A DNA stretch of 60,251 nucleotides. It comes from a virus. Taxonomy: Duplodnaviria > Caudoviricetes. A program made the translations under genes and the position numbers. The notes below the pieces were generated by a model, which saw nothing but the letters and a program-made list of their open reading frames with translations, searched no databases and was not told where the DNA came from. Positions within the stretch are counted from its first letter, which is position 1. Every line of letters begins with the position of its first letter. This document shows positions 6,732 through 49,888 of this stretch, piece by piece. The stretch is from positions 1 to 60,251 of IMG/VR virus record IMGVR_UViG_3300009160_000004; one strand, given 5' to 3'.

Positions 6732-7169
6732 TTTTGCCTAACTTCCCGCGAGCGATTGTGGGGCCATCAGACGGCCGATTGCGTGAACAGGTGTGCAGCG
6801 TCACCCGGGCGACAAATGGGGCTTTAGAACGCATGCCAGGAGCTTGTGGAGGAGCGACACGCGGGCGACATGGGGTAAAAAACGAGAAGCATCGGGTTTT
6901 GAAAAAAGTCGGGTGGGGAATTGACATGATTCCGACGACGATTTGGGGGGGGGCGGGGGGTAGGTGTCGCCATGTCTGCCCTGGCTGTAGAGTCGCCGGA
7001 AGTCTAGGCGTGCTATGGACTTAGGTTTCCACACTGCACCCTGTTCAATCCTTACGGTTTTGTAAGGTAGCCGAATTCGCGGGATTCTCGCCCCGGATCG
7101 GTGCGCGTGCATTGCCCGCTATTCGCCTGTTCACCGCTGTCATTCTGTACACTACCCGCCTCGCCCAAC

Positions 7170-7202
7170 AAAAAACCCCTCCCCCCGGTTAGAGGGGAGG
7201 GG
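7170..7202 (-). terminator. Rho-independent terminator
   Basis: CCCCTCCCC/GGGGAGGGG stem plus T6, downstream of 7237-7926. Confidence 0.85.
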
Positions 7203-7207
7203 TCGAT

Positions 7208-7248
7208 AGTGTACGCTGTGCCAGTGTACGCTAGTCCTACTGTACGCT
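7208..7248 (+). repeat. Three tandem A(G/C)TGTACGCT boxes
   Basis: Copies at 7208, 7223 and 7239; period 15-16 nt. Confidence 0.8.
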
Positions 7249-7926
7249 GATCCAGTGTCGAACGCGGCCGATCTTCTCTGCGTCCGTGCTGGCGTCCATC
7301 CATCCCGCGTCCGTCCCCCTGCTCTCCGTGCCATCCCCTGCCGTGGCCGGGATGCCAGCCGTGGGCGTGGGCGTGGGCGTGAACGCTCCCCGGCGGGAAT
7401 GCCCCTCCCCTGCCACGGCCGCGAGCATGGCATCCACGCTGCCATACCCTGCCTTCCCGGCGAGGATCAAGGCCTTCCTGTAGAGCGTGGGGGACGCTGT
7501 GAGCCTCTCCACGGCAATCGCCATAGCAGGGGGTGTCGTGGGCGTGCGATGGGCTGACCGCTCCCGCTCTGCCATCATCTCGCGGGTACGCTTGCGGTAG
7601 GACTGCCGCCGCAAGCCGGTCATGCCTTGCCAGCCAGTGAGCCGGAAGTAGCGGCGCGTGGCGTAGAGGGCGTGGGCATGATCCCCGGCTGCTACCTTGG
7701 GAAACCGTCCCTCCCGCCAGTGTAGGTACGCTGCGGCTGCTACCTCTTCGCACCGCTCTTTGCGCCCCGGCAATTCCGCCCGCGTGCGTGCCGTGGGGAG
7801 GATGTCCCGCTCCGCAGACCGCCGGAAGAAATCCAGCACTCCCCCATGGTATTCAGCCGGGAGGGTGGCGGGGTCGTAGGACTGACGCGGGAGGGGGCAA
7901 GATGCTCCGTCGTACATGGTGAACAT
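7237..7926 (-). CDS. Divergently transcribed protein, possibly a degenerate sigma-like factor
   Basis: Own consensus promoter, AGGAG SD and terminator; weak resemblance to sigma region 2. Confidence 0.7.
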   Translation of the reverse strand: MFTMYDGASCPLPRQSYDPATLPAEYHGGVLDFFRRSAERDILPTARTRAELPGRKERCEEVAAAAYLHWREGRFPKVAAGDHAHALYATRRYFRLTGWQGMTGLRRQSYRKRTREMMAERERSAHRTPTTPPAMAIAVERLTASPTLYRKALILAGKAGYGSVDAMLAAVAGEGHSRRGAFTPTPTPTAGIPATAGDGTESRGTDAGWMDASTDAEKIGRVRHWISVQ

Positions 7927-7973
7927 ATCTATACTCCTGAGGTTTTCCGGTTCCGTTGTGGGCCGGTTGTGGG

Positions 7974-8002
7974 ATTGTATCGGCTGTCCGTGGCAGTGTC
8001 AA
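7974..8002 (-). promoter_or_regulatory. Sigma70-type promoter
   Basis: TTGACA-N17-TACAAT. Confidence 0.88.
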
Positions 8003-8003
8003 C

Positions 8004-8067
8004 AAAAAAATTCCATCGGCGGCGAATTTTTTTCCGGCCATCTGTTATCTATATGGCGTGAACGTCA
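8004..8067 (+). promoter_or_regulatory. Duplicated early promoter/operator, copy 1
   Basis: A-tract/T-tract palindrome plus CATCTGTTATCTATATGGCGTGAACGTCA. Confidence 0.6.
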
Positions 8068-8195
8068 TACGATCCAATGTAAGACGTTCACGCACGCGAT
8101 TTTTCGTCGCGTGACGTTCGCACGGGCGGTCAGTGTATGACCGTCCAACCATGCGAGCAACACTGGCGGTCGCCCTGGATATGCGGTCAGGCGTG

Positions 8196-8251
8196 AAAAA
8201 ATCTTTCCGGATTTTTTCGTGTCATCTGTTATATCTATGGCGTGACCGTCA
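8196..8251 (+). promoter_or_regulatory. Duplicated early promoter/operator, copy 2
   Basis: A-tract/T-tract palindrome plus CATCTGTTATATCTATGGCGTGACCGTCA. Confidence 0.6.
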
Positions 8252-8314
8252 AACGTCCCATGCCGAGGGGTAACGTATTACTTCCTGCGCATGCGGGCAG
8301 CCAATGGAGGTACG

Positions 8315-8521
8315 ATGTACTGTGACATCAACTTCCCGACGAAGAAGGCTCTGAAGGCGGCTGTTGCCAGTGGGCAGGCTGTGACGATCTTCTCGCCGGG
8401 GCCGTTTCCCGTGGATTGTTCTACGGGCAAGCATTGTGTGGAGGGGCCGCACTATCCCAAGCCTCACTCCTGGTACGCCAGTGTGGTTGTGGATGATGGG
8501 CGGATCGTGTCGGTGAAGTGA
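8315..8521 (+). CDS. Conserved phage hypothetical protein (first early gene)
   Basis: GGAGG SD; NFPTKKALK...EGPHYPKPHSWYA. Confidence 0.8.
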   Translation: MYCDINFPTKKALKAAVASGQAVTIFSPGPFPVDCSTGKHCVEGPHYPKPHSWYASVVVDDGRIVSVK

Positions 8522-8928
8522 CGGGATTCGAACCCGGGCAGTGGCAGCCCTTACGGGTTATTCCGTGCCGCTGCCCGGGTTCGGTTGCCGTTGGTATACT
8601 TATGTATACGGCGTCCGAAAGCGTTCACGGAAAACTATAGCTCTGGCCGGTTTCCTTCGCTGGGCAAGAGTCCGGCGTGGAGTGATCACCCACAGCCCAG
8701 CGAACTGCCGCGTGGCATCCCGTCGAACAACGGGCAGCCGGTACGGCTAGAACGTATCCGTGAACGCCTTCGGTTGCCGTTTCTACGGTGTCCGAATAGC
8801 CCCCTCTGGGCAAAACGCATTCGACGGAGTGCGTAGTCAACGCGAGGAGAGCCGCCACCGCCCGTGCTAGCCGGCTTCTGTGGCCTGTAATCCAACCGTT
8901 CGCTCAGAGGGTGCTATTCGGCTGCCGT
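8521..8928 (+). ncRNA. Candidate array of three structured RNA domains
   Basis: Each is closed by ACGGnRTYCGAA...TTCGGYTGCCGT, with long internal stems whose G-U pairs favour the + strand. Confidence 0.65.
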
Positions 8929-8956
8929 TCGGTAGCCATTCATGGAGGTGCGAGCA

Positions 8957-9847
8957 ATGGGTTATTCCGTTGCCCGTATCGTCCAGCCGGGCAAGAGCAA
9001 TACGAAGATCGCTCACGGTGAGCGCTTCGATGTCCGCTCCTGCACGGTTTCTCTTGCGGCCAGCGATTCCGCAGGGTTCAACGTCTGCCCCCGGGCTATG
9101 CCCCGGTCGCAGATCGACACCCTGCGTGCTGCTGGCAAGACCTGGGAGCAAGTCGCAGCGGTGGCTCACTCGCGTGGGCTGTCGATGTGCACTGCCTCCT
9201 GTGTCACCAACGAAGCAGGCAAGGGTGCTGCGGATTTCGTCCGCAACCCCCGCAAAAACCTGACTCGCTGGTATCAGGAGAATCGTGCAGAGTTCACCGC
9301 CCGTCTGCTGGACGAATTGCGGGCTGAGATTCGCAAGGCCAAGCCGGGCCAGATCGTGGCCTGCCGGCCGAATGTGGACAGCGATGTCCCGTGGGAACGG
9401 ACAGTTCCCGAGTTGTTCGATCTGCCCGTCCAGTACTGGGACTACACCAAGGTCTCAACGCGGCTGGGCAAGACTCCGGCGAACTACCACCTGACCTATT
9501 CGGTCAATGATGGCACGCAGCCGGAAGACTGGCAGCGAGTGTACGACAGCGGCGCAAACATTGCCGTGGTGTTCGACACTCACTGGCAGCCAGGTGGCCA
9601 TGAGAACGGCCGGAAATTCGGGCAGCTACCGACATGGTACACCGATCCCAATGGGTATCGGTGGCGCGTAGTCGATGGCGACAAGTCAGACTTCCGGTTC
9701 CTGGACGATGGGCCGGTGTGTGTGGGCCTGCGGCTGAAAGGGTTCTCCTTCGGTCGGTGGATGGCCCGTATGTCTGGATTCGCACAGCGTGTGCCCCGTG
9801 CGTTGCGGGGTGTGTTTTCAACTGTGCATCCCTCCAGGGCAGCGTGA
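8957..9847 (+). CDS. GP88-family protein
   Basis: NVCP..., WDYTK, NYHLTYS, NIAVVF, DGDKSDFRFLD and VGLRLKG motifs. Confidence 0.8.
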   Translation: MGYSVARIVQPGKSNTKIAHGERFDVRSCTVSLAASDSAGFNVCPRAMPRSQIDTLRAAGKTWEQVAAVAHSRGLSMCTASCVTNEAGKGAADFVRNPRKNLTRWYQENRAEFTARLLDELRAEIRKAKPGQIVACRPNVDSDVPWERTVPELFDLPVQYWDYTKVSTRLGKTPANYHLTYSVNDGTQPEDWQRVYDSGANIAVVFDTHWQPGGHENGRKFGQLPTWYTDPNGYRWRVVDGDKSDFRFLDDGPVCVGLRLKGFSFGRWMARMSGFAQRVPRALRGVFSTVHPSRAA

Positions 9848-9855
9848 GGTGTGCG

Positions 9856-10074
9856 ATGAATGAGTTGATCTTTCAGAACGGATGCTATCGCGTGGAGCTA
9901 CTGGTGCGCACTAACGGCACCATCTCCATCGGAACCATGTGCGATGTCGCTCGCGGGCCGCTGGGGCACTACGTCGCGGTGACTCCGGAGCAGGCGGTCA
10001 GTCTGGTTCGGCATCTGTGCGATCACGTTCCGGGTGTGGCGGAAACGGTCCTTGGAAAACTTACGGAGTTGTGA
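9856..10074 (+). CDS. Hypothetical early protein
   Basis: GAGGTG SD, MNELIFQ... Confidence 0.65.
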   Translation: MNELIFQNGCYRVELLVRTNGTISIGTMCDVARGPLGHYVAVTPEQAVSLVRHLCDHVPGVAETVLGKLTEL

Positions 10075-10075
10075 C

Positions 10076-10249
10076 ATGCAGAAAGAAACGACGCTAGTTC
10101 TACGGATCACTTGGGAATCCAACGAGGTAGATCGACCCGGTCGGTGGGATTGGCACACGCTGATCGATGTCGAACGCGGGCATGTGGAGATCGTCGCGGA
10201 CAGCGACGACAAGTATCAGATCGACATCCTGACTGAAAACAAACTGTGA
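10076..10249 (+). CDS. Hypothetical early protein
   Basis: GGAG SD, MQKETTL... Confidence 0.65.
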   Translation: MQKETTLVLRITWESNEVDRPGRWDWHTLIDVERGHVEIVADSDDKYQIDILTENKL

Positions 10250-10257
10250 GGTGTGAC

Positions 10258-10536
10258 ATGGTGGCAATCACCAGCAAGTATCACGGGCCGACGAATACAC
10301 GCGGCTCATGTGTTCGGGCTACGGCCAACGGCCATATGGTCACAGTGCCATGGGCTAGCGAGCTAGACAGCGAAGCCAACCATCGGGAGGCGTGCAAGCG
10401 GCTCTGCGACAAGTTGGGCTGGGATGCGGATCGGTTCTTCGGTGGTGCGATGGACGATGGGAGATGGGCATGGGTGCCCGTCTTCCCGTACGAATGGGAG
10501 CAGCGACAAAAGGAGGAGACACATGCCAACAGTTGA
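10258..10536 (+). CDS. Conserved phage hypothetical protein
   Basis: AITSKYHGPTNTRGS motif; SD. Confidence 0.75.
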   Translation: MVAITSKYHGPTNTRGSCVRATANGHMVTVPWASELDSEANHREACKRLCDKLGWDADRFFGGAMDDGRWAWVPVFPYEWEQRQKEETHANS

Positions 10537-13862: not shown

Positions 13863-14113
13863 TGACATTTGAAGACTGGCGAGCGACACGGCATCAGGCC
13901 ACGCAAGGTCTGGAGCATGACATTCTGGAAGACCACTTCGGCTATGTGCCAGACAACGTGCAGTCGGTGTGGGTCTATGAGGTGGGCGTGCTGGCCGGGC
14001 TGAATGACGGCCAGTACTACACGCACATCGGACGGTCGGAATACACGGGCACGCTAGACGATATTGAGCGTCGGCTGTGGGAAGATCACGCGAAACAGGG
14101 GGTGGGGGAATGA
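13862..14113 (+). CDS. Hypothetical early protein
   Basis: Coupled ORF. Confidence 0.7.
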   Translation: MTFEDWRATRHQATQGLEHDILEDHFGYVPDNVQSVWVYEVGVLAGLNDGQYYTHIGRSEYTGTLDDIERRLWEDHAKQGVGE

Positions 14114-14799
14114 GGGTGCTGGACCTGTACTGCGGGGCAGGGATGGCGGCGGATGGGTACTACGATGCGGGGTTCGATGTGGTCGGCTGGGATGTGCGGT
14201 TCCAGCCCAACTACCCTTTCCAATTCCACATGGATAGCGCGTTGGATGTCCTAGAAAACCGCGAGTATCTGCGGGAGTTTGATCTGATTCACGCATCCCC
14301 TCCCTGCCAAGCACACACGCGGGCCAAGCATCTGCGGGATGCGCAAGGCGGTAAGTGCAAGTACGGCGATCTGCTTACCCCCACCCTGGAACTGCTGCGA
14401 GATTGCGGTGTGCCGTGGGTAGTTGAGAATGTGGTTGGCGCACCAGGGATGGATGGTGCAGTGGTCGAATGCGGTTCTGCGTACGGCCTGAAGGTTCGCA
14501 GGCACCGTCTGTTCCTGGCGTCTTTCCCGTTAGTTGGCCCTGGTTGCAAGCACAAAGAGCAGGGCAAGCCCATCGGCGTGTACCACGTTATGGGCGACAC
14601 ATGCAAGGGTGTGTGCAAGAAGACTGGCAAGCTGGTGATCGGAGGATCAACAGCCAAGACCGTGGAGGAGGGGCGCGCCGCGATGGGCGTGACCCGCAAG
14701 ATCTCATGGAACGAACTGAAGGAGGGCTTCCCGCCTGCGTACACTCGCCACGTTGGCGAGCAGGCGATGGCCTATCTGTTGCAGAAGGAGGTAGCGTGA
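14110..14799 (+). CDS. DNA cytosine-5 methyltransferase (short phage type)
   Basis: Motif I LDLYCGAG, IV SPPCQ, VI ENV, VIII RRHRLF, X-like GFPPAY. Confidence 0.88.
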   Translation: MRVLDLYCGAGMAADGYYDAGFDVVGWDVRFQPNYPFQFHMDSALDVLENREYLREFDLIHASPPCQAHTRAKHLRDAQGGKCKYGDLLTPTLELLRDCGVPWVVENVVGAPGMDGAVVECGSAYGLKVRRHRLFLASFPLVGPGCKHKEQGKPIGVYHVMGDTCKGVCKKTGKLVIGGSTAKTVEEGRAAMGVTRKISWNELKEGFPPAYTRHVGEQAMAYLLQKEVA

Positions 14800-16903: not shown

Positions 16904-16974
16904 GCGAGATGGCTGACTTCTGTGTTGGTTCCCTGGTTGTCCTTGCCTTCCTCTGGTGGAGTTCCCTTGCATGA
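16900..16974 (+). CDS. Small membrane peptide, 24 aa
   Basis: GGAGG SD; ATGA overlaps at both ends; hydrophobic. Confidence 0.55.
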   Translation: MSEMADFCVGSLVVLAFLWWSSLA

Positions 16975-17729
16975 AACTGTATCTCTATGGCCGTGTCTCA
17001 ACGGATGATCAGCAGACATCGGCCGATGCTCAGTCGGTCAGGCTGCGTGAGTTCGCTGAGAAGTCTGGCCTGGAGATGGGCGGGGTGTTCGTGGATGAGG
17101 ATGTCTCCGGCAAGATCCCCCTCCAAGAGCGACCCAAGGGGAAGGAACTGTGGAATCTCATCCAGCCTGGGGATGCCATCGCATTCACCAAGGTAGATCG
17201 TTGCTTCAGATCCTTGGTAGATGCTGCCTCAACCTTGGAGAAGTGGAAGCTCATGGGCATCCGGGTCCATATCCTGGACTTAGGGATCGATGTGAACACG
17301 CCGGCCGGAGAGTTGTTCTTCTCCCAACTGGCAGCGTTCGCACAGTTTGAGCGGGCCATGATCGGACTGCGTGTGCGTGAGGCCCAGGCCCACAAACGCC
17401 GCACCGGCAAGCCATACAACAAGACCCGCCCTATCGGATGGCGCAGGCAGGGCGACTGCTATGTGCCCCTGCATTCCGAGCGGAAGCTGGCAGAGAGAGT
17501 CATCGCTTACCGCGACCGTGGCGAGTCGCTGCCCCGGATTGCTTTGCGTCTGTGCAAGGAGAACATCCGGAGCGCTGACGGCTCTTGGCTTCGCCCCTCC
17601 GAAGTACGGCGGCTGGAGATCGCGGGGCGAGCCGGATATCCAAGGATTGCGAGACGGTCCTTGCAAGCCTCTGTGCGGACATGCTCGCCACCCGGATCGG
17701 GATCTGATGCTCTTCCGACAGAGACCTGA
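16971..17729 (+). CDS. Serine recombinase (resolvase catalytic domain plus short DNA-binding extension)
   Basis: YGRVST..Q, SG...ERP, KVDRCFRS and FAQFER motifs. Confidence 0.92.
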   Translation: MKLYLYGRVSTDDQQTSADAQSVRLREFAEKSGLEMGGVFVDEDVSGKIPLQERPKGKELWNLIQPGDAIAFTKVDRCFRSLVDAASTLEKWKLMGIRVHILDLGIDVNTPAGELFFSQLAAFAQFERAMIGLRVREAQAHKRRTGKPYNKTRPIGWRRQGDCYVPLHSERKLAERVIAYRDRGESLPRIALRLCKENIRSADGSWLRPSEVRRLEIAGRAGYPRIARRSLQASVRTCSPPGSGSDALPTET

Positions 17730-42208: not shown

Positions 42209-44811
42209 CAGGACACACCATCCACAGTGAGGCCGTACAATTTCACCGCATTGGCTGGCTGCGAGGATGCCTGCGTCCCAGCCATCGCAATAGCGACATG
42301 CCTGTCGCCACCGACATTATGCTCGTCGCGGTGACCGGACAGATACGCACGCGCAAATCCGTTTGCGTCACCAAGGGGAGAGCGACCGCGACCCATGTTA
42401 AGCGTGGACTGCGTTCCTGCCGACAGGAATCCTCCACGGTCGCTGACGATTGCGTTCGCGCGCGGAGTTGGAGAATTGTTGTAGTGCAACCGCAATTGCA
42501 GATTGGCGTCGTTTTGCGTCGGCTCGTACAGCAATCCAACGGATCGGCTGCCCTTGTCGCCGTCCGTAATGGTGAAATTGCCGGTACGGAATTCGTACGG
42601 GATCGGAGAGCCTGGAGCATCCACATGGCCGGATGAATTTGTGAAGGTTCCGTCGCCCATGCCGTACAAAGAGACCTGTTTCCCAGACACCTGACCGACC
42701 GTTCCAGCAGTGACCGCGACGGGATATGTCTCCTCCCACCACGCCTTAGTCGCCGCGCAGTAGCACAGCGCGCGTGTTGAAAGCGACTCTCCCTGTCGGC
42801 AGTAGAAGAAGCGGATGACCTTGGAGTTCTGGTCGGCCGACACAAAGAAGACGCTGGACGCAGGGAAGTAGATCAGGCCGTCGCGCCAATAGTTGTCGAT
42901 GGGAAGGGAGACAGCCGCTTCGGTCTGCCCGTCGAAGGCGTACATGCCGTAGCTGTCTGCGATGTACGCTACTCCGCCCAGCACGGCAAAGCACCTGCTG
43001 TTTAGCATGCCGCGATACGCTGCGAGCGTAATGGATGCATCGATAACCGGCTGCGAGACGTACTGCAACTTGTACAGATGACGAGATTGGCAAATCAGCA
43101 GTGCGGCACCCAGTGGAACAAGACCGACAATGGCGTCCGGATCACCTGCGTTTTCTTGCAGAACAAGTTCGTTTTCTTCCGGCACGCTCTCTGGCTCATC
43201 GATCTCCGAGAACAAGAGTGCATTGGGGCGCTCTCCGGTCGTGTCCACGGCATACCACGCGCGGTCCTGGAAGACGCATCCGACTGCGAAGCTCCCTGGG
43301 AGGACGCCGAAGCGCCTGGCGTTTAGCTGGCCGGAAGGCAGTACGACTGGCATCAGTCCGTAGTCGGCGCGCGTTGTGTCTTTAAGATCATCGTCCGAAA
43401 GCGTGTCGGAATACGCCCCGAAGAATCCTCCGTCCGTGCGTTGGATGGTGGCAACCCTGAACAACACCACGGACTGATCGGCTGTCGTGCGCCACAGTTC
43501 CATGGCGGTTACGCGATCTTCAATGCCCGGATGCGTGAACGACCACGTAATGCTTGGCGCACCCGATGAAGTTTCGACCTCCACAAGGTCTGAGATGGAG
43601 GACGGAATGGGTCCGTTGCGGGATTCCGGCGTGGAGTCAAGATAGCGAATACAGCAAAGATACTTGCCGCTGATTGCGCTGGACATGGTGGCCGTGAGCT
43701 TGGCCTGCGTGTCCCTAATGACGGCAGTCGGCACTTGGAAGTACTGCCCGCCAGCAGTCACGGAGACTGTCGATACCGAACCGTTTAGCAACGACGCTCC
43801 GGCGGCAGCGCCAGCGCCATCGGGATCGTCTGCGGCTGGGGTAAACGTAATGACGGGCGGCGATACAAACCCGGCTCCTCCAGTGACAGCCGTGACACTG
43901 GCCACTCGGTATGACATAGACACGCGCACCTGCGCGCCAGTGCCTCCTCCCCCCAGGACACTTGCTGTCACGCCGCTCGTCGTAGCGCCGGTTCCGCCGG
44001 AGATGAGGCGGATCGTGTCCACTTTACCATCTGCAACTGCCGCAACGGCCACGGCAGATGTCAGCCCTTGCGCAGTGGAGAAGAGGACTGTCGGGGCCCC
44101 AGTGTAACCAGTGCCTTGGTTGGTGATCGTGGCCGCGTAGACAGTTCCCAGAACGCCAACGGACAGTTGCGCCCCGCCAGCGATTCCGCCGTCCACAGAA
44201 ACCGTGGGTGTGGTGGAGTACCCTTCCCCGCCGTCAGTGACAACGACGCTTGTCACTCGCCCATTTGTGATCGTGGCTTTCGCCTTGGCGTTTGCGCTGG
44301 GGCTGCCGCCCGTAAAACTCACGGTTGGGACGTTGTTGTACCCTACGCCAGGAGAAACGATCTGGATGTCTTTGACGTACCTTGCTCCGCCGCCAGTAGA
44401 CGCGACGATAGTCGGCCCAACAGCCGGCTTCTGGATTCCGATTCGGTCAACTACGGCCTTGTCGCCGTCCCAGCGGATTCCCCGCCCCATGCCGTCCACG
44501 CCGTACATGTCATTGAAACGGCCCTTCAGGAACGCCATCGGGCGAATAGGGCCGGTGTACGCAAACGCCGTTGCGGCAGCGCCGGTGCCGCCGTTACCAG
44601 AGAACTGCACTTCCGGCGACCCTGTGTAGCCAGTGCCAGATGCAGTGATGACCACAGACTCCACGGCCGTTCCGGCCATGTGTGCAACGGCCGCAGCGCC
44701 CGTCCCACCGCCGCCGACAATCGCGACGTTAGGCGGAGCGGTGTAGCCAGTTCCGCCAGCGACGAGCGACACGGAGACAACGCGATTAGGGGAACGAGTG
44801 GAGATAATCAT
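42208..44811 (-). CDS. Tail nozzle/hub-like protein with G.GYT..P.V repeats
   Basis: Propeller-like C-terminal part (LLFSEIDEPESVP, IVGLVPLG); repeated GTGYT motifs. Confidence 0.7.
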   Translation of the reverse strand: MIISTRSPNRVVSVSLVAGGTGYTAPPNVAIVGGGGTGAAAVAHMAGTAVESVVITASGTGYTGSPEVQFSGNGGTGAAATAFAYTGPIRPMAFLKGRFNDMYGVDGMGRGIRWDGDKAVVDRIGIQKPAVGPTIVASTGGGARYVKDIQIVSPGVGYNNVPTVSFTGGSPSANAKAKATITNGRVTSVVVTDGGEGYSTTPTVSVDGGIAGGAQLSVGVLGTVYAATITNQGTGYTGAPTVLFSTAQGLTSAVAVAAVADGKVDTIRLISGGTGATTSGVTASVLGGGGTGAQVRVSMSYRVASVTAVTGGAGFVSPPVITFTPAADDPDGAGAAAGASLLNGSVSTVSVTAGGQYFQVPTAVIRDTQAKLTATMSSAISGKYLCCIRYLDSTPESRNGPIPSSISDLVEVETSSGAPSITWSFTHPGIEDRVTAMELWRTTADQSVVLFRVATIQRTDGGFFGAYSDTLSDDDLKDTTRADYGLMPVVLPSGQLNARRFGVLPGSFAVGCVFQDRAWYAVDTTGERPNALLFSEIDEPESVPEENELVLQENAGDPDAIVGLVPLGAALLICQSRHLYKLQYVSQPVIDASITLAAYRGMLNSRCFAVLGGVAYIADSYGMYAFDGQTEAAVSLPIDNYWRDGLIYFPASSVFFVSADQNSKVIRFFYCRQGESLSTRALCYCAATKAWWEETYPVAVTAGTVGQVSGKQVSLYGMGDGTFTNSSGHVDAPGSPIPYEFRTGNFTITDGDKGSRSVGLLYEPTQNDANLQLRLHYNNSPTPRANAIVSDRGGFLSAGTQSTLNMGRGRSPLGDANGFARAYLSGHRDEHNVGGDRHVAIAMAGTQASSQPANAVKLYGLTVDGVS

Positions 44812-47800
44812 GTCGGTTCCGCGAACGCCCTTTCTGGCGGCGTAAACTCGCCAAAATATCTCCCGCCAGCCGTGACACGCAGCGTCTCCAAGTACGCGAG
44901 GTTGGTGGGCGCCATGAAATATTGCAGCCCGGATGTCGCGGCAATCCCACGGAAAGTACCTGTAAAATACAGATTGTCGTAGAATGGGCAGTTGACTCCA
45001 TTAGTGCATCCGTGCGTGGCGCACGGATATGTGTTGCTACTATTCCGAACAACGCGATCCGCGGCTGGCATGTTAGCATTCCACGACGAATACGAGGAAA
45101 CGGCCGTAAGGGCGCGACCGTTCAGATAAACGCGAAGCGTATTATTTGCTGTATAGAAGAGCTTTTTCTGGGAAAACTCCACGGCAAGGTGAACCCATTG
45201 GTCAATGGCGTCATCTGAAATTGTAAAGTCGCTGCGGATGTAGTCGCTTTGATTTGTGACGCAGCCAGCGCCAGCAAATTCATTTGTATACGCGCGAACG
45301 ATTAGCCTATATGGCGTTGTTGTCCCGGACGTTGGCAGCAACTGCGCGTCAACGTAAACGTGCCCATGCTCTGGGTTGGACGTTCCTCGCTGGTTCTCGT
45401 AAACGACGGGAATGTATTTGAAAGACGTAGTGTTGATGCTAACGCCTTGCAGGTTGTTCCCAGTTCTCTGCACGCCGAAGAGGTAGCGGGCTGATGAACC
45501 CAAGCCTAACGCGGCTTGCACCCACGCCTCGCAGGTCAAAACATCGTCGGATCCGTAGTCGTATCTCCCACTCGCCGTACTTGCCGCCCCGGCAGTGGAA
45601 AATGCGCGATAGATAAACGGAGTATTTAGCGTCACGTACGCATCTCCGAATCTCCCAGTTCCCGTTGGCTGCGGGGACGAGGAGGAAATCAGCGACGTTG
45701 TCAGCTGACCGCTACGCTCGCGAACGATAGACTTTCGCGACTGCGTGTCGTACAGAAACGTCACGCGGTCCCACGCGGAGTCGGCGTACGTTCCCGGAGC
45801 AGTCAGTGATGCGGTCACGCCGGTTGGCGTTCCGCTGACCGCCGTCCCACCGGCCGTTGATGCCGACGCACGCAACAGGAACGACACTGACGGAGGCTTG
45901 GAGATGTAGAAGCGAGCAAGCCCCCACTTGTGGTCTGGGTGGTATAACGTGGAATACGAACTTGGCGTCGGGAGCAGCAGACTGCTCCGCTTGTATTTCA
46001 TTGTTGTTGGATGCAAAACGCCAGTATGCTCGCCAATAGTAGACCACGTACTGCCGCTATTGGTGCTAACCTCCAATAGAAGCGAGTCGGAATGATCAAC
46101 ACCAACGGATGGCATGATGATGTCTTGGATGATCCGCCCGTCATCAAACTTGGGCGTGAGGAATGTTGGCGCTGTGGTGACAGTTCCGGCCTGCGCAGTG
46201 ACCGTCGTGTCGGCCGTCACGGAGCCCGCAAAATTGCCAACTCGCACCGTGAGCGTGCGGGATCCTGCCGCGCCTGTCGGGAACGTGATTGTTTTGGCAG
46301 AAAGGTCCGTGGCGACATTTGCAAACTCTATTCCGCCCTCCAGCCCCGCCGCCGCCAGCACGCCCGTTCCTGCGTTGGATACGGCCCACGTTACGGTCAC
46401 GTATCCCGCCGAAACAGCCGAAGTCAGCGTCAGCCCTGTCGGGGCGACGGAGACCGCCTGATCGACAAGCGCGAGAGAATATGGGCTAGGCCCAACAGTA
46501 GTGATTGTTGAGACACGGAAGTTGTATCTCTTGGCCGACGAAAGCTGGTCGGTGATCGTGTAAGTGTTCGCGGCCGTTGTGCCGGTGGCGTTGATCCATG
46601 CCGTCGCGTTGGCTTCTTGGTACTGGACGCTATGCCCGGTGACAGTCGATCCATACGTCGCGCCAATCGTCCACCGCAAGGAGATTGAATTAGAAAACTC
46701 TGCGGTAGCCGTGCGAGACGTAATCGAAAGAGACGTTGGCGCAACGGCAACGCGGCCGGGGTACACGGCGTTGGATTGCGTGCTGTACGGGCCAGTGAAG
46801 TTGCGGTTGTTGACGGCTGCTACGCGGACAACGTACTCGTTGCCATTAACCAGCCCTGCAATCGTCGCCGGGGAGGCCGGGACCGTCCCGTAAGTACTCC
46901 ACGTAGATGCGGACGTTTGCTTGTACTGAATGACGTATCCGGTAATCTCAGCACCGCCGTTATTCGATGGCGTCGTCCACGACGCGGTGATTTGCATGTT
47001 CCCGCCAGTCGCGTTGGCGCCAGTCGGCGCAGTCGGCGCGCCAACTGGCGTGACGGCCGCGCCTGCTGTGCTGTAATTGCCAGTACCGACTGACGAAACC
47101 GCAGCTACGCGAAACAAGTACGCGGTGCCGTTGGTGAGCCCATTGACAGTAGTTTGCGTGTTAGTGCTGGAGCCATCGCTGAACGTCGCCCAAGTGCTTC
47201 CTGAGTTGGAGCTGTACTGGATGACATAGTCAATGATGGCAGAGCCGCCAGTGTCCGCAGGGGCGGCCCAGCGGACGAGCGACAGTCCGTCACCGGATGT
47301 CCCCGTGACGCTGGTTGGCGCCAGCGGAACTGTCTGCGGAACCAGTGCGCTGCTAGTGACTGTCGCGCTAGCGCCCTCTGAATTTACTGCCGCCACGCGG
47401 TAGCGATATGAGCTTCCGTTGGTGAGCCCCGTCGCCGTGTAGTTGGTCGCAGTGCTGGCGCTGCGCGTGATGACGGAGTAGGAGCCGCTGTTGACAGACA
47501 CCTCAATTTGATAATCAGTGATTGCGGCACCGCCCGTCACCGCAGGCGCAGCCCAAGAGAGTGCGACCTGCGCATTTCCGGCAGTTCCTGCCAGACTGGT
47601 CGGGGCGTTAGGGGTGGTGCGAGGAATGACCGCGGATGTCGCAGAGGAGTACGGGCCAGTGCCCACGGCGTTGACGGCCGCCACGCGATACCGATAGGAG
47701 CTTCCGTTGGTCAGGCCAGTGACCGCAAGCGATGTATCTGCGCTCGTGCCGTCACTTATTGTTGTCCAAGTTGACCCCCCATCGGTGGACTGCTGAATAA

Positions 47801-48776
47801 CATAATCTGTGATTCCACCAGCGTGATTCGCTGGTGGCGCCGACCATAGCAGCGAGGCTTGCTGGTTTCCGTGCGAGGCCGATAGCGAAGACACCTGACC
47901 AGGAACGCCTAGCGGAAGAATTGGGGTCATCCACGCTATAAACTCGCTGCCTGCAATTGCGTTGCTGGCGGCCACGCGAAACACGTACGGCGACCCGTTG
48001 GTCAGCCCAGTGACTGTTGCAGTAGTTGCTGTCGATGTGCCGTCGCTGAACGTCGCCCATGTCGCGCCGCCGTTGCCGCTGTATTGCACGACGTAATCGG
48101 TGATCGCGGAACCGCCGTTATTCGATGGCGCAGTCCACGACAGCACGGCCTGCGCGTTGCCGGGTGAGGCAGTCAGGCTTGTTGGAGAACCTGGCGCGCC
48201 GACCGGAGTCACGGAGCTTGAGGCAACAGTGTAGTTGCCAATTCCGTACGCATTGGTGGACGCAACGCGGAACACGTACGTCGTGCCGTTAGCGAGGCCA
48301 GTGAGGGCGGCGCTGGTTTCTGATGACGATGCCGCAAACGTCCACGTTGCGCCGCCATCCGAAGATCGCTGCACTGAGTACGCGGTCACGCCGCCACCGC
48401 CGGAGAATTCCGGCTCATCCCAATCCAGCGTGGCCGAGCCGCTTCCGGCAGACGCCGTGAGATTCCTGGGGATTCCAGGAACTCCTGAAAAAGACGGTGG
48501 TATGCCACCAGCTGGCACTTGTGTGGAATATACGGCGCCAACGGCGTCTTGGTAAACAATCCCACCACCAGCAGATCGCTGATAATTAAACGCAGAGATC
48601 ACGGGCTGCGTTGCGACGGCAGTCGAAGCAAACGTCACGGCCTGAAGCCCAGGACGAACGGTCAACTGGCCTGGGGCTACGGACTGGAGGTTTACCTGCG
48701 TGACTGCCGCGCCAGGGGGAATGGAATACGGACTGGCATTCGTGACCAGACCGGCCCACTTTTCGACTGTGATCAT
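44808..48776 (-). CDS. Tail fibre/adhesin with tandem FN3 domains and C-terminal LamG-like domain
   Basis: At least 7 repeats of W..P...GG..ITDY...GLTNG..Y.FRV.A.N; TCEAWV, QWVHLA, RVYLNG. Confidence 0.85.
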   Translation of the reverse strand: MITVEKWAGLVTNASPYSIPPGAAVTQVNLQSVAPGQLTVRPGLQAVTFASTAVATQPVISAFNYQRSAGGGIVYQDAVGAVYSTQVPAGGIPPSFSGVPGIPRNLTASAGSGSATLDWDEPEFSGGGGVTAYSVQRSSDGGATWTFAASSSETSAALTGLANGTTYVFRVASTNAYGIGNYTVASSSVTPVGAPGSPTSLTASPGNAQAVLSWTAPSNNGGSAITDYVVQYSGNGGATWATFSDGTSTATTATVTGLTNGSPYVFRVAASNAIAGSEFIAWMTPILPLGVPGQVSSLSASHGNQQASLLWSAPPANHAGGITDYVIQQSTDGGSTWTTISDGTSADTSLAVTGLTNGSSYRYRVAAVNAVGTGPYSSATSAVIPRTTPNAPTSLAGTAGNAQVALSWAAPAVTGGAAITDYQIEVSVNSGSYSVITRSASTATNYTATGLTNGSSYRYRVAAVNSEGASATVTSSALVPQTVPLAPTSVTGTSGDGLSLVRWAAPADTGGSAIIDYVIQYSSNSGSTWATFSDGSSTNTQTTVNGLTNGTAYLFRVAAVSSVGTGNYSTAGAAVTPVGAPTAPTGANATGGNMQITASWTTPSNNGGAEITGYVIQYKQTSASTWSTYGTVPASPATIAGLVNGNEYVVRVAAVNNRNFTGPYSTQSNAVYPGRVAVAPTSLSITSRTATAEFSNSISLRWTIGATYGSTVTGHSVQYQEANATAWINATGTTAANTYTITDQLSSAKRYNFRVSTITTVGPSPYSLALVDQAVSVAPTGLTLTSAVSAGYVTVTWAVSNAGTGVLAAAGLEGGIEFANVATDLSAKTITFPTGAAGSRTLTVRVGNFAGSVTADTTVTAQAGTVTTAPTFLTPKFDDGRIIQDIIMPSVGVDHSDSLLLEVSTNSGSTWSTIGEHTGVLHPTTMKYKRSSLLLPTPSSYSTLYHPDHKWGLARFYISKPPSVSFLLRASASTAGGTAVSGTPTGVTASLTAPGTYADSAWDRVTFLYDTQSRKSIVRERSGQLTTSLISSSSPQPTGTGRFGDAYVTLNTPFIYRAFSTAGAASTASGRYDYGSDDVLTCEAWVQAALGLGSSARYLFGVQRTGNNLQGVSINTTSFKYIPVVYENQRGTSNPEHGHVYVDAQLLPTSGTTTPYRLIVRAYTNEFAGAGCVTNQSDYIRSDFTISDDAIDQWVHLAVEFSQKKLFYTANNTLRVYLNGRALTAVSSYSSWNANMPAADRVVRNSSNTYPCATHGCTNGVNCPFYDNLYFTGTFRGIAATSGLQYFMAPTNLAYLETLRVTAGGRYFGEFTPPERAFAEPT

Positions 48777-49888
48777 GTGCCCTCGTCGGGTTTGAGTGGG
48801 CTTCTCCAGCCGCCATCGTGCCACACTTCCCTGGACCGGCCGGAGAGAGGAGCAAGCTGATCCATCTCCATGGCCAATCTGAGATCCCGCTGGTACATGG
48901 AGAAGGCGTTGTCCGGCTTTTGATTTCGGACCCGTGCCAGCCAGTACTCCGCCGCAGAGTAGATGACGTTGTGCATGTGCGGCGGAACGTCAATGGGATC
49001 AGTGATCAGATACTTGGTAGTTCCTGCAATTGTCCCGGAGGTTTCGGTGGTCATGGATGTGGTCGAAGCGACATCGGTGATCTTCGACTCCGAGAACCAC
49101 GGGGTGATCGATGTGATCGGGCCGGGAATGTTGGTGGTGTCCCCAACACGGAGGACGGAGCCAATCATGCCGGGAGAGAACTGCGTGCTTGTGCCCGTGA
49201 CTGCGGTAGTGGAGCGGGCAATCGTTCCGGCCCGCACGGACGCTTCGTGACCAGAGAACCGCAAGCCACGGGCAGTCCTCCGGTAAATGAAGTCAATCGT
49301 CTCGGCCTGGGTCGGATAGCCCAGGAGTTTGATTGCCCAGCCATCGGACGCCGGGTCTTTGATGACAGTCCAGTGGTACGGACGGCCGGAGGAGTTGGCC
49401 ACCCGCTCCAACTTCATCGCAATGTCCGGGGTCACATACAGGCCGGACCACCAGTTGAATTCGTCGGACGGCTCATCCAGATTCCGGAAATCTGCCGGGA
49501 GCGGGTAGGTCACCCGATACAGGGTGTACGCCGTGCCGGCCGAGATGTTCCCAGTGAAACCGATATCCAGGGTGGCGACAGTACTGGACGAGGTGGACAA
49601 AATCCGCCCGATTGTGTCCCCGATGCGGATATGGGCTCCAGAGGCCCAGGAAGGCCACGTAGCGCCCGCCAGCGTGACGGTGGACCCGGACACCTGTACA
49701 GTACCAGTGCCCTGCGGAAGGCTTGTAATGAGCCGTCCGTGGACATGGTAGTACGCCCAGTCGCGAATCTGGGTAACTTCCGCATAGGACCGCTGCACGG
49801 CCGTCCGGATGTCCCGCTGTTCCGCGTCCTGGGGCCCGCCGAAGGACGACGTAATCAGGTGTTCTACTACGTCAAAATAGGTAAGCAT
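48773..49888 (-). CDS. Head-tail adaptor (podoviral gp11/gp4-like) with inserts
   Basis: TYPLPADF, IDVPPHMHNVI..AAEY; position before the nozzle. Confidence 0.7.
   Translation of the reverse strand: MLTYFDVVEHLITSSFGGPQDAEQRDIRTAVQRSYAEVTQIRDWAYYHVHGRLITSLPQGTGTVQVSGSTVTLAGATWPSWASGAHIRIGDTIGRILSTSSSTVATLDIGFTGNISAGTAYTLYRVTYPLPADFRNLDEPSDEFNWWSGLYVTPDIAMKLERVANSSGRPYHWTVIKDPASDGWAIKLLGYPTQAETIDFIYRRTARGLRFSGHEASVRAGTIARSTTAVTGTSTQFSPGMIGSVLRVGDTTNIPGPITSITPWFSESKITDVASTTSMTTETSGTIAGTTKYLITDPIDVPPHMHNVIYSAAEYWLARVRNQKPDNAFSMYQRDLRLAMEMDQLAPLSGRSREVWHDGGWRSPLKPDEGT

Follow-up and report, generated by a model that had tools for sequence, protein, structure and literature searches.

The stretch between a short early gene and the GP88 gene of a freshwater phage holds a tandem array of three RNA domains closed by the same short helix. 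It is the rare three-domain form of an RNA element that a clade of ~60-kb freshwater phages has conserved on the mRNA strand. Its structures are conserved and supported by covariation, two of its helices are mutually exclusive, its start is anchored on a stop codon, and its cassettes are polymorphic. By analogy with the RNase III sites of T7, we tentatively favour, at a little under an even chance, the reading that the array is a cis-acting intercistronic processing and refolding module for the GP88-like gene.

Architecture of the array

The window, that is the whole stretch of DNA analysed, corresponds to a complete virus record of 60,251 bp bounded by direct terminal repeats. Freshwater and lake metagenomes contain near-identical DNA, and no nucleotide relatives were found among deposited phages. 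The array belongs to a rightward early operon, in which it separates a 68-aa open reading frame from the GP88 gene. An inverted-repeat search recovered the three domains, D1 to D3, at the places where the first-pass annotation of this DNA had put them (Table 1).

Table 1. Features of the array and its flanks in the window
Feature	Position	Strand	Description
Upstream early ORF	8315..8521	+	68 aa from ATG 8315; TGA stop 8519-8521; no family
D1	8521..8591	+	5' half 8521-8532; inner stem 8533-8546 with 8566-8579; apex 8547-8565; 3' half 8580-8591
Linker hairpin D1/D2	8594..8609	+	Small, palindromic
D2	8608..8780	+	Closing stem 8608-8631 with 8757-8780; branched payload; optional cassette
D3	8785..8928	+	Closing stem ~26 bp; 'type A' payload, kept in 13 aligned variants
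Alternative terminal hairpin	8920..8937	+	D3 3' half 8920-8926 with anti-handle 8931-8937
SD-sequestering hairpin	8943..8985	+	Holds Shine-Dalgarno 8944-8950 and GP88 start codon 8957-8959; -24.3 kcal/mol folded alone
GP88 gene	8957..9847	+	Pfam GP88 (PF17338), 296 aa, E 1.7e-24; family without assigned function

The common closing helix of 12 bp, here called the handle, is made of the halves ACGGNRTYCGAA (5') and TTCGGYTGCCGT (3') and contains two G-U pairs and a pyrimidine mismatch at fixed positions. Complementarity continues inwards to arms of 26 nt in D1 (8521-8546/8566-8591, 85% complementary), 24 nt in D2 (8608-8631/8757-8780, 88%) and 30 nt in D3 (8785-8814/8899-8928, 80%), and the segments enclosed by the 12-nt inverted halves measure 47-149 nt. 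The 3' half occurs in exactly three copies in the region; allowing one mismatch raises the count to 4 across the 60-kb window, where 0.98 would be expected and 1 of 100 shuffles reaches 4. All three exact + strand matches of the 5' half lie in the array. A degenerate copy resembling the 3' half (85%) follows at 8928-8940. This segment had been described as a fourth 3' half (8928-39) that permits an alternative hairpin; the hairpin is indeed predicted there, but in it the segment provides, at 8931-8937, a shortened strand that resembles a 5' half and has the 3' half of D3 (8920-8926) as its partner.

The region was also compared with known classes of elements. Scanning window positions 7000-10500 against Rfam at E values up to 10 gave 6 matches, the best with E 0.6 and none near its gathering threshold, in agreement with the first-pass annotation, which recognised no Rfam family. 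Among 53 related loci searched against Rfam 15 at gathering, the only match was a hammerhead in L006, outside the array. A CRISPR array, already dismissed in the first-pass annotation, was rejected because the repeat units are 12-nt inverted halves around 47-149 nt, as against direct repeats of 25-40 nt with spacers of similar length. A tRNA or tmRNA was rejected as well, ARAGORN reporting 0 genes in the whole window. Protein coding, which the annotation had raised as an objection to its own proposal, does not hold either: the array offers only frames of 40-83 aa, with a third-position G+C of 0.60-0.61 versus 0.70-0.72 in the flanking genes, and relatives delete segments or put unrelated sequence of other lengths there.

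An element shared by freshwater phages

The family was assembled by handle-pattern and protein searches. The handle is present in relatives, a point on which the original proposal had been made to depend, and the searches yielded 47 distinct arrays, of which 15 have one domain, 29 have two and 3 have three. Pattern matches belonged to the family in 13 of 17 cases in viral sequences, where the other 4 were chance matches, and in 20 of 52 cases in metagenomes. None of the 26 matches in bacterial genomes did, so that no host or prophage copies were found there. For the handle variant TTCAG...TCTGAA, one of 10 matches in viral contigs was real (L030, on the same contig as L003).

The protein searches delimit the clade. 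The element is present at each of the 34 loci (L109-L142) where the downstream protein shares 70-100% identity with that of L006, and at 18 of the 28 loci found via the L011 protein. More distant phages (45 loci at 40-49% identity; L204-L215) have an ordinary short spacer in place of the array. The element occupies a single locus per genome, and in every family locus read it lies between a stop codon and a Shine-Dalgarno sequence.

Folding, strand preference and covariation

The + strand of positions 8500-8960 has a predicted folding energy of -234.2 kcal/mol (z -8.1), which 0 of 100 shuffles equalled, and the - strand one of -202.9 kcal/mol (z -4.7). The sense strand is the more stable one in 47 of 47 arrays, with a median margin of 15.9 kcal/mol, in line with the early claim of an RNA-level feature of that strand. 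The stems are 24-27 bp long with one mismatch. Across 27 related domains, handle position 6 is a G-U pair in all 27, position 5 a U-G pair in 23 and position 7 unpaired in 24, so that the mismatch noted at the same position in the window recurs in the relatives. Covariation, another feature on which the proposal had been staked, is present: 9 stem pairs have changed on both sides in these domains (8 of them in the inner stem), and the covariation score of 0.118 exceeds both the shuffled value of 0.062, with 0 of 500 shuffles reaching it, and the 0.02-0.05 of slid partners. The handle is nearly invariant, wobble pairs included, though RNase III needs no fixed sequence, which hints at a sequence-specific partner.

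The same evidence bears on a function at the level of DNA, where the array would be an operator palindrome at the domain junctions, a replication origin or a set of attC-like hairpin recombination sites. Each junction of 3' half, short spacer and 5' half does form an imperfect DNA palindrome, cassettes come and go at the repeats, and a serine recombinase gene lies 8 kb away. However, only one strand conserves the G-U pairs, every array favours the sense strand, and compensatory changes lie deep in stems that differ between domains. The junction spacers also vary (the linkers of relatives are U-rich and 3-5 nt long, the D1/D2 spacer of the window 16 nt), there is a single locus per genome, and no strand-changing (inversion) joints were seen in the lake DNA runs. 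We therefore consider a DNA-level element highly improbable.

An alternative terminal hairpin and a locked start site

Downstream of the array, an anti-handle competes for the 3' strand of the last handle, and the D3 handle and the terminal hairpin are thus mutually exclusive. A terminal hairpin of 7-10 bp (-9.7 to -13.9 kcal/mol) is predicted in 45 of 45 distinct tails, which represent 18 sequence types. A change in the 3' half goes with a matching one in the anti-handle, as in GGCTGCC/GGTAGCC, GGTTGCC/GGTAACC, CAGGTGCC/GGTGCCTG and CCGGTGCC/GGTTCCGG. The closing helix is also compensated in some lineages, where the 5' halves of L202 and L131 match a TTCCGG variant. Since both the terminal hairpin and the closing helix are compensated, both of the exclusive helices look selected. 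The two states are predicted to be nearly iso-energetic, with a median difference of +1.0 kcal/mol in one-domain and +0.9 kcal/mol in multi-domain elements.

The Shine-Dalgarno sequence lies 6-12 nt from the terminal hairpin and, together with the AUG, is paired with the first codons of the downstream gene in all three groups of downstream proteins. Opening this ribosome-binding site has a predicted median cost of 14-15 kcal/mol (15.1 versus 14.1 kcal/mol across the two conformations). In silico, switching between handle and terminal hairpin had no consistent effect on access to the site, with a median difference of -0.2 kcal/mol and a range of -3.4 to +3.8 kcal/mol.

A pair of exclusive helices whose first strand bears a ribosome site would also be expected of a transcription attenuator, in which the terminal hairpin and a U-rich run form an intrinsic terminator, the closed handle is the anti-terminator, and the position of the ribosome decides. 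The 8 nt after the hairpin do hold 5-6 T in 24 of 45 tails; in the other 21, though, they hold at most 4, and in the window 3. A terminator scan of 8500-9000 found none, and the hairpin is only 6-12 nt away from the Shine-Dalgarno sequence. Attenuation is accordingly improbable in our view.

Anchoring on the upstream stop codon

The first base of the first handle, at 8521, is also the A of the TGA that ends the upstream gene, and the array thus begins on that stop codon. An in-frame stop overlaps or abuts the first handle base in 62 of 73 locus rows, either as a TGA or TAA that shares its A or as an abutting TAG. The upstream frames of these anchored loci have 40-259 codons and fall into 12 unrelated C-terminal groups. 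Ten more rows carry a small extra hairpin, 'D0' (CCGGGCAGGGG...CCCCTGTCCCGG), inside the first 5' half, and the remaining row is cut by a contig end. Among the eight D0-type loci that were read, the stop stands directly before the split handle in six, is separated from it by a 1-nt spacer in one, and is not adjacent in one. In L003:2471-2518, L016:9188-9235 and six other loci, D0 is inserted at the handle mismatch; the weak spot of the handle thus tolerates insertions, and the first domain becomes a three-way junction. Such exact anchoring is not accounted for by processing alone.

Anchoring speaks for a ribosome-gated switch that works without cleavage. Here the terminating ribosome would melt the first handle, and the freed 3' strand would re-pair with the anti-handle in one-domain elements or from neighbour to neighbour in multi-domain ones. 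A terminating ribosome covers ~12 nt of mRNA downstream of the stop, about the length of the handle, and the anchored genes are of 12 unrelated kinds, both of which count for such a switch. When the first 13 nt are blocked, the terminal hairpin is predicted to be favoured by 5-11 kcal/mol in 15 of 15 one-domain elements, and in the window the predicted fold shifts 400 nt downstream. In L003 and L126, a handle change is matched throughout the neighbour-to-neighbour pairs and by the anti-handle, while the first 5' half shows no compensation. The review PMC12548453 describes a locked ribosome-binding site as typical of coupled genes.

The relay that the switch requires is not predicted for most multi-domain arrays, however: with the first 13 nt blocked, 8 of 32 favour the terminal hairpin and 15 of 32 shift in that direction. 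Access to the ribosome-binding site is alike in both states. The distance from stop to start is 86-627 nt, while coupling, according to PMC12548453, falls steeply with distance and decays within tens of nucleotides, and structure directly after the stop correlates negatively with it. The loci thus have neither the short stop-to-start distance nor, as far as the predictions go, the opening of the site by upstream translation that would mark translational coupling. A switch of this type is in our estimate unlikely. Stop anchoring, the co-varying alternative hairpin and the locked ribosome-binding site all point to a role in cis.

Variable payloads and exchange of cassettes

The combination of a constant handle with variable payloads, first described in the window, holds in relatives and in lake populations as well. 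At the small end, the apex of D1 is a 4-nt loop that tops an extended stem (L020, L081), and at the large end it measures 96 nt (L075); some domains are plain hairpins whose apex comprises little beyond the loop, and D3 domains are 95-212 nt long across the family. The type A payload, found in D3 of the window, is nearly invariant in 13 aligned variants, in which 5 pairs have changed on both sides. Type B payloads share a recurring hairpin that, judging from its sequence, may form a pseudoknot. Many D1 apices of relatives (e.g. L007:11751-11800) consist of a GGGC-tetraloop-GCCC hairpin followed by an unpaired AAGTAAGTCCGAATGC, which repeats the 5'-half core TCCGAAT; no compensating partner for it was found.

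The D2 copies of the window and L016 are identical except for 1 nt, even though their D1 apices, flanks and downstream genes differ. D2 is missing from most relatives and from some population alleles. In lake DNA contigs, alleles skip D2 exactly between the repeated 3' halves (joint 8579>8769, with 13 shared letters), and further D2-skipping joints occur at 8588>8786 and 8591>8785. Other lake alleles have joints across the D3 payload (8802>8913, 8810>8908, 8811>8905 and 8811>8909), and some carry other D3 payloads. In nature, therefore, cassettes come and go at the handles.

The first-pass annotation had proposed that the handles are processing signals and that the released payloads are early small RNAs acting in trans, as decoys, anti-defence RNAs or guides. 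Payloads that differ between close relatives and between alleles of the same lakes would suit this proposal, as would the near-invariance and paired changes of the type A payload, the recurring type B hairpin with its putative pseudoknot, and the near-identity of D2 between genomes with different flanks. One RNA-library contig may also be counted for it: 163 nt long, flanked by adapter letters and derived from an rRNA-depleted library, it covers 8629-8767, the D2 payload only. Yet this sole contig has low depth, shows neither molecule ends nor strand, comes from a library that may hold DNA, and does not amount to a discrete RNA. The remainder of 7900-9900 has no contig from this library (X20), a gap in coverage that carries no weight as evidence. 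Moreover, 15 of 47 arrays consist of one domain, some domains carry nothing more than a loop as payload, and the array matches no known RNA family. The complementarity of payloads to the phage's own genome (best 30.2 bits) does not rise above that of shuffles (mean 26.2, maximum 32.2). We regard the release of guides or decoys as quite unlikely. The strong conservation of the type A payload nevertheless suggests that payloads matter more than a processing reading allows.

A bolder reading, which we rate as rather unlikely, goes further. The handle would be a scaffold on which structured small RNAs (e.g. anti-defence decoys) are inserted, swapped and released by recombination between handles, and a signal that the upstream gene has been translated or cut would be relayed to the leader of the next gene. 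Such a signal could pass down the chain as the pairing register shifts, since each handle is able to pair with the one beside it. To our knowledge, neither a cassette rack of non-coding RNAs nor a register-shift relay has been described before.

A proposed processing and refolding leader

We now return to the favoured reading, a processing and refolding module in cis. RNase III needs about two helical turns of stem, and a processing site of the T7 type calls for at least ~20 bp of duplex in an intercistronic stretch of mRNA. Stems of 24-27 bp are a classic RNase III substrate and their intercistronic position is T7-like, which together led us to this reading. The comparison with T7 early RNA made in the first-pass annotation is thus reasonable as far as stems and location go, while the cleavage itself, its trigger and the output of the module are what we infer. 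One-domain elements with hardly any apex exist, which places the core function in the stems and the tail, in cis.

In the proposed sequence of events, host RNase III would cut the long stems. The handle, which appears to be kept deliberately imperfect with its two G-U pairs and one mismatch, would be weak enough for its halves to part after cutting. The freed 3' strand of the last handle would then pair with the anti-handle, so that the GP88 message would now begin with a small hairpin. This hairpin would precede the ribosome-binding site, which is also hairpin-locked, by 6-12 nt. Termination of translation at the upstream stop codon could trigger or time this refolding, as the ribosome there would melt the first handle. 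The hairpin tops would be exchangeable inserts, gained or lost by recombination between repeated handles, and may have functions of their own after release. Double cuts by RNase III leave a 2-nt 3' overhang; the ends of the RNA-library contig, from a library that may hold DNA, imply an 8-nt overhang, unlike one staggered RNase III cut.

Flanking genes and genome setting

The proteins encoded at the locus give few clues to function. The 68-aa upstream frame has no NCBIfam match. The downstream slot is occupied by one of three protein groups, a GP88 protein of 296 aa, one of 249 aa, or a 270-aa protein of phrog_2554, the last of which has no Pfam match. PHROGs assigned the proteins of the locus only to families without assigned function, and a search of the PDB by sequence with the GP88 protein found nothing. 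Modelled by AlphaFold from 21 sequences, the 249-aa form gave a confident structure (pLDDT 91); a model from a single sequence was unusable (pLDDT 36.6). The confident model had 0 matches among solved structures at E <= 0.001, and its best TM-score was at most 0.35, with weak matches resembling alpha/beta barrels. Invariant residues of the family include C34, P35 and C64 (numbering of the 249-aa form). Among titles and abstract openings in the literature on 'gp88', none is about its function. Pfam searches with 20 further early or leftward ORFs identified a single HTH protein and no RNA-binding or RNase domain.

Several other features of the early region were noted. A 49-nt direct repeat (8028-8076 and 8212-8260, 82% identical), each copy of which is preceded by a T-run, is found in the divergent intergenic stretch ahead of the early operon, and a leftward sigma-70-like promoter (11/12) stands at 8002-7974 (-). 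These are probably early promoters or operators. Immediately before the first early gene, the leader GTAACGTATTACTTCCTGCGCATGCGGGCAG (8270-8300) is kept in L006 and L012 despite their different first genes; the early transcript may begin here, with a small hairpin. In L006, a ~360-nt noncoding insert between this conserved leader and the first early gene holds a type II hammerhead ribozyme (RF02276, L006:3417-3477 (+), 39 bits against a gathering threshold of 37, E 4.4e-4) with a recognisable core, CUGAUGA/GAAA. The window is without this insert. The L006 hammerhead suggests that the early messages of these phages are also shaped by self-cleavage.

The early block closes with the small serine recombinase (Pfam Resolvase, E 3e-33; 16956-17729 (+)), 8 kb from the array, and with an ORF weakly similar to C-5 cytosine methylases (14077-14799 (+)). 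Elsewhere, a protein of 1338 aa is encoded at 44808-48824 (-); it has seven fibronectin type III repeats and presumably serves as a tail fibre or in decoration.

Comparison with known systems

The early genes of T7 and T3 reportedly carry RNase III hairpins (R0.3-R1.3), and similar, mutually homologous sites are said to occur in the early RNA of Bacillus phage SP82. By analogy, these hairpins are the closest known kind, with the same place, strand and two-segment stems. As in T7 and T3, the hairpins lie on an early polycistronic message between a stop codon and the next ribosome-binding site, have two helical segments split by a small distortion, and are alike within one phage. Here, however, the copies follow one another head to tail without intervening genes and have only the lowest 12 bp in common, they bear exchangeable tops of up to ~170 nt and are joined by a co-varying alternative hairpin, and their cleavage is the one we propose above.

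With trp-type attenuators and translational coupling, the array shares exclusive helices, a fixed codon at which a ribosome would cover one strand, and a locked downstream site. Unlike in those systems, the upstream frames are full genes, of 40 to over 250 codons and in 12 unrelated groups, the strand that locks the ribosome-binding site is inside the downstream gene, the stop-to-start distance is 86-627 nt, and the U-tract is inconsistent. Ribosome-dependent unfolding of RNA is exemplified by MS2 coat-lysis and rpmI-rplT in the review PMC12548453.

Further likenesses are to arrays of hairpins in other settings. REP, BIME and REPIN elements and integron attC sites also have arrayed hairpins with a conserved base and a variable top that are gained and lost by recombination. 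The present element differs in having a single locus per phage genome, in selection on the mRNA strand, and in abutting a stop codon and a ribosome-binding site, and no RAYT or IntI gene was present among the proteins scanned. The put RNAs of phage HK022, reportedly ~70 nt in all, are said to form two tandem stem-loops that mediate antitermination. They are similar in that two tandem stem-loops on an early transcript, just after the first small gene, act in cis, but they lack variable tops and have no sequence likeness to the array.

Implications

The 47 distinct arrays define an uncatalogued but well-defined RNA element of uncultured freshwater phages. Its architecture is unusual in combining a constant, weak closing helix and exchangeable tops with a competing second helix, both helices being compensated. 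Designers of synthetic operons could take a compact rule from the handle. Should the payloads act in trans, the array would be a natural small-RNA cassette system. If the stems are processing sites, the array shows how a phage can keep large structured insertions between two genes while its downstream message is still delivered capped and regulated.
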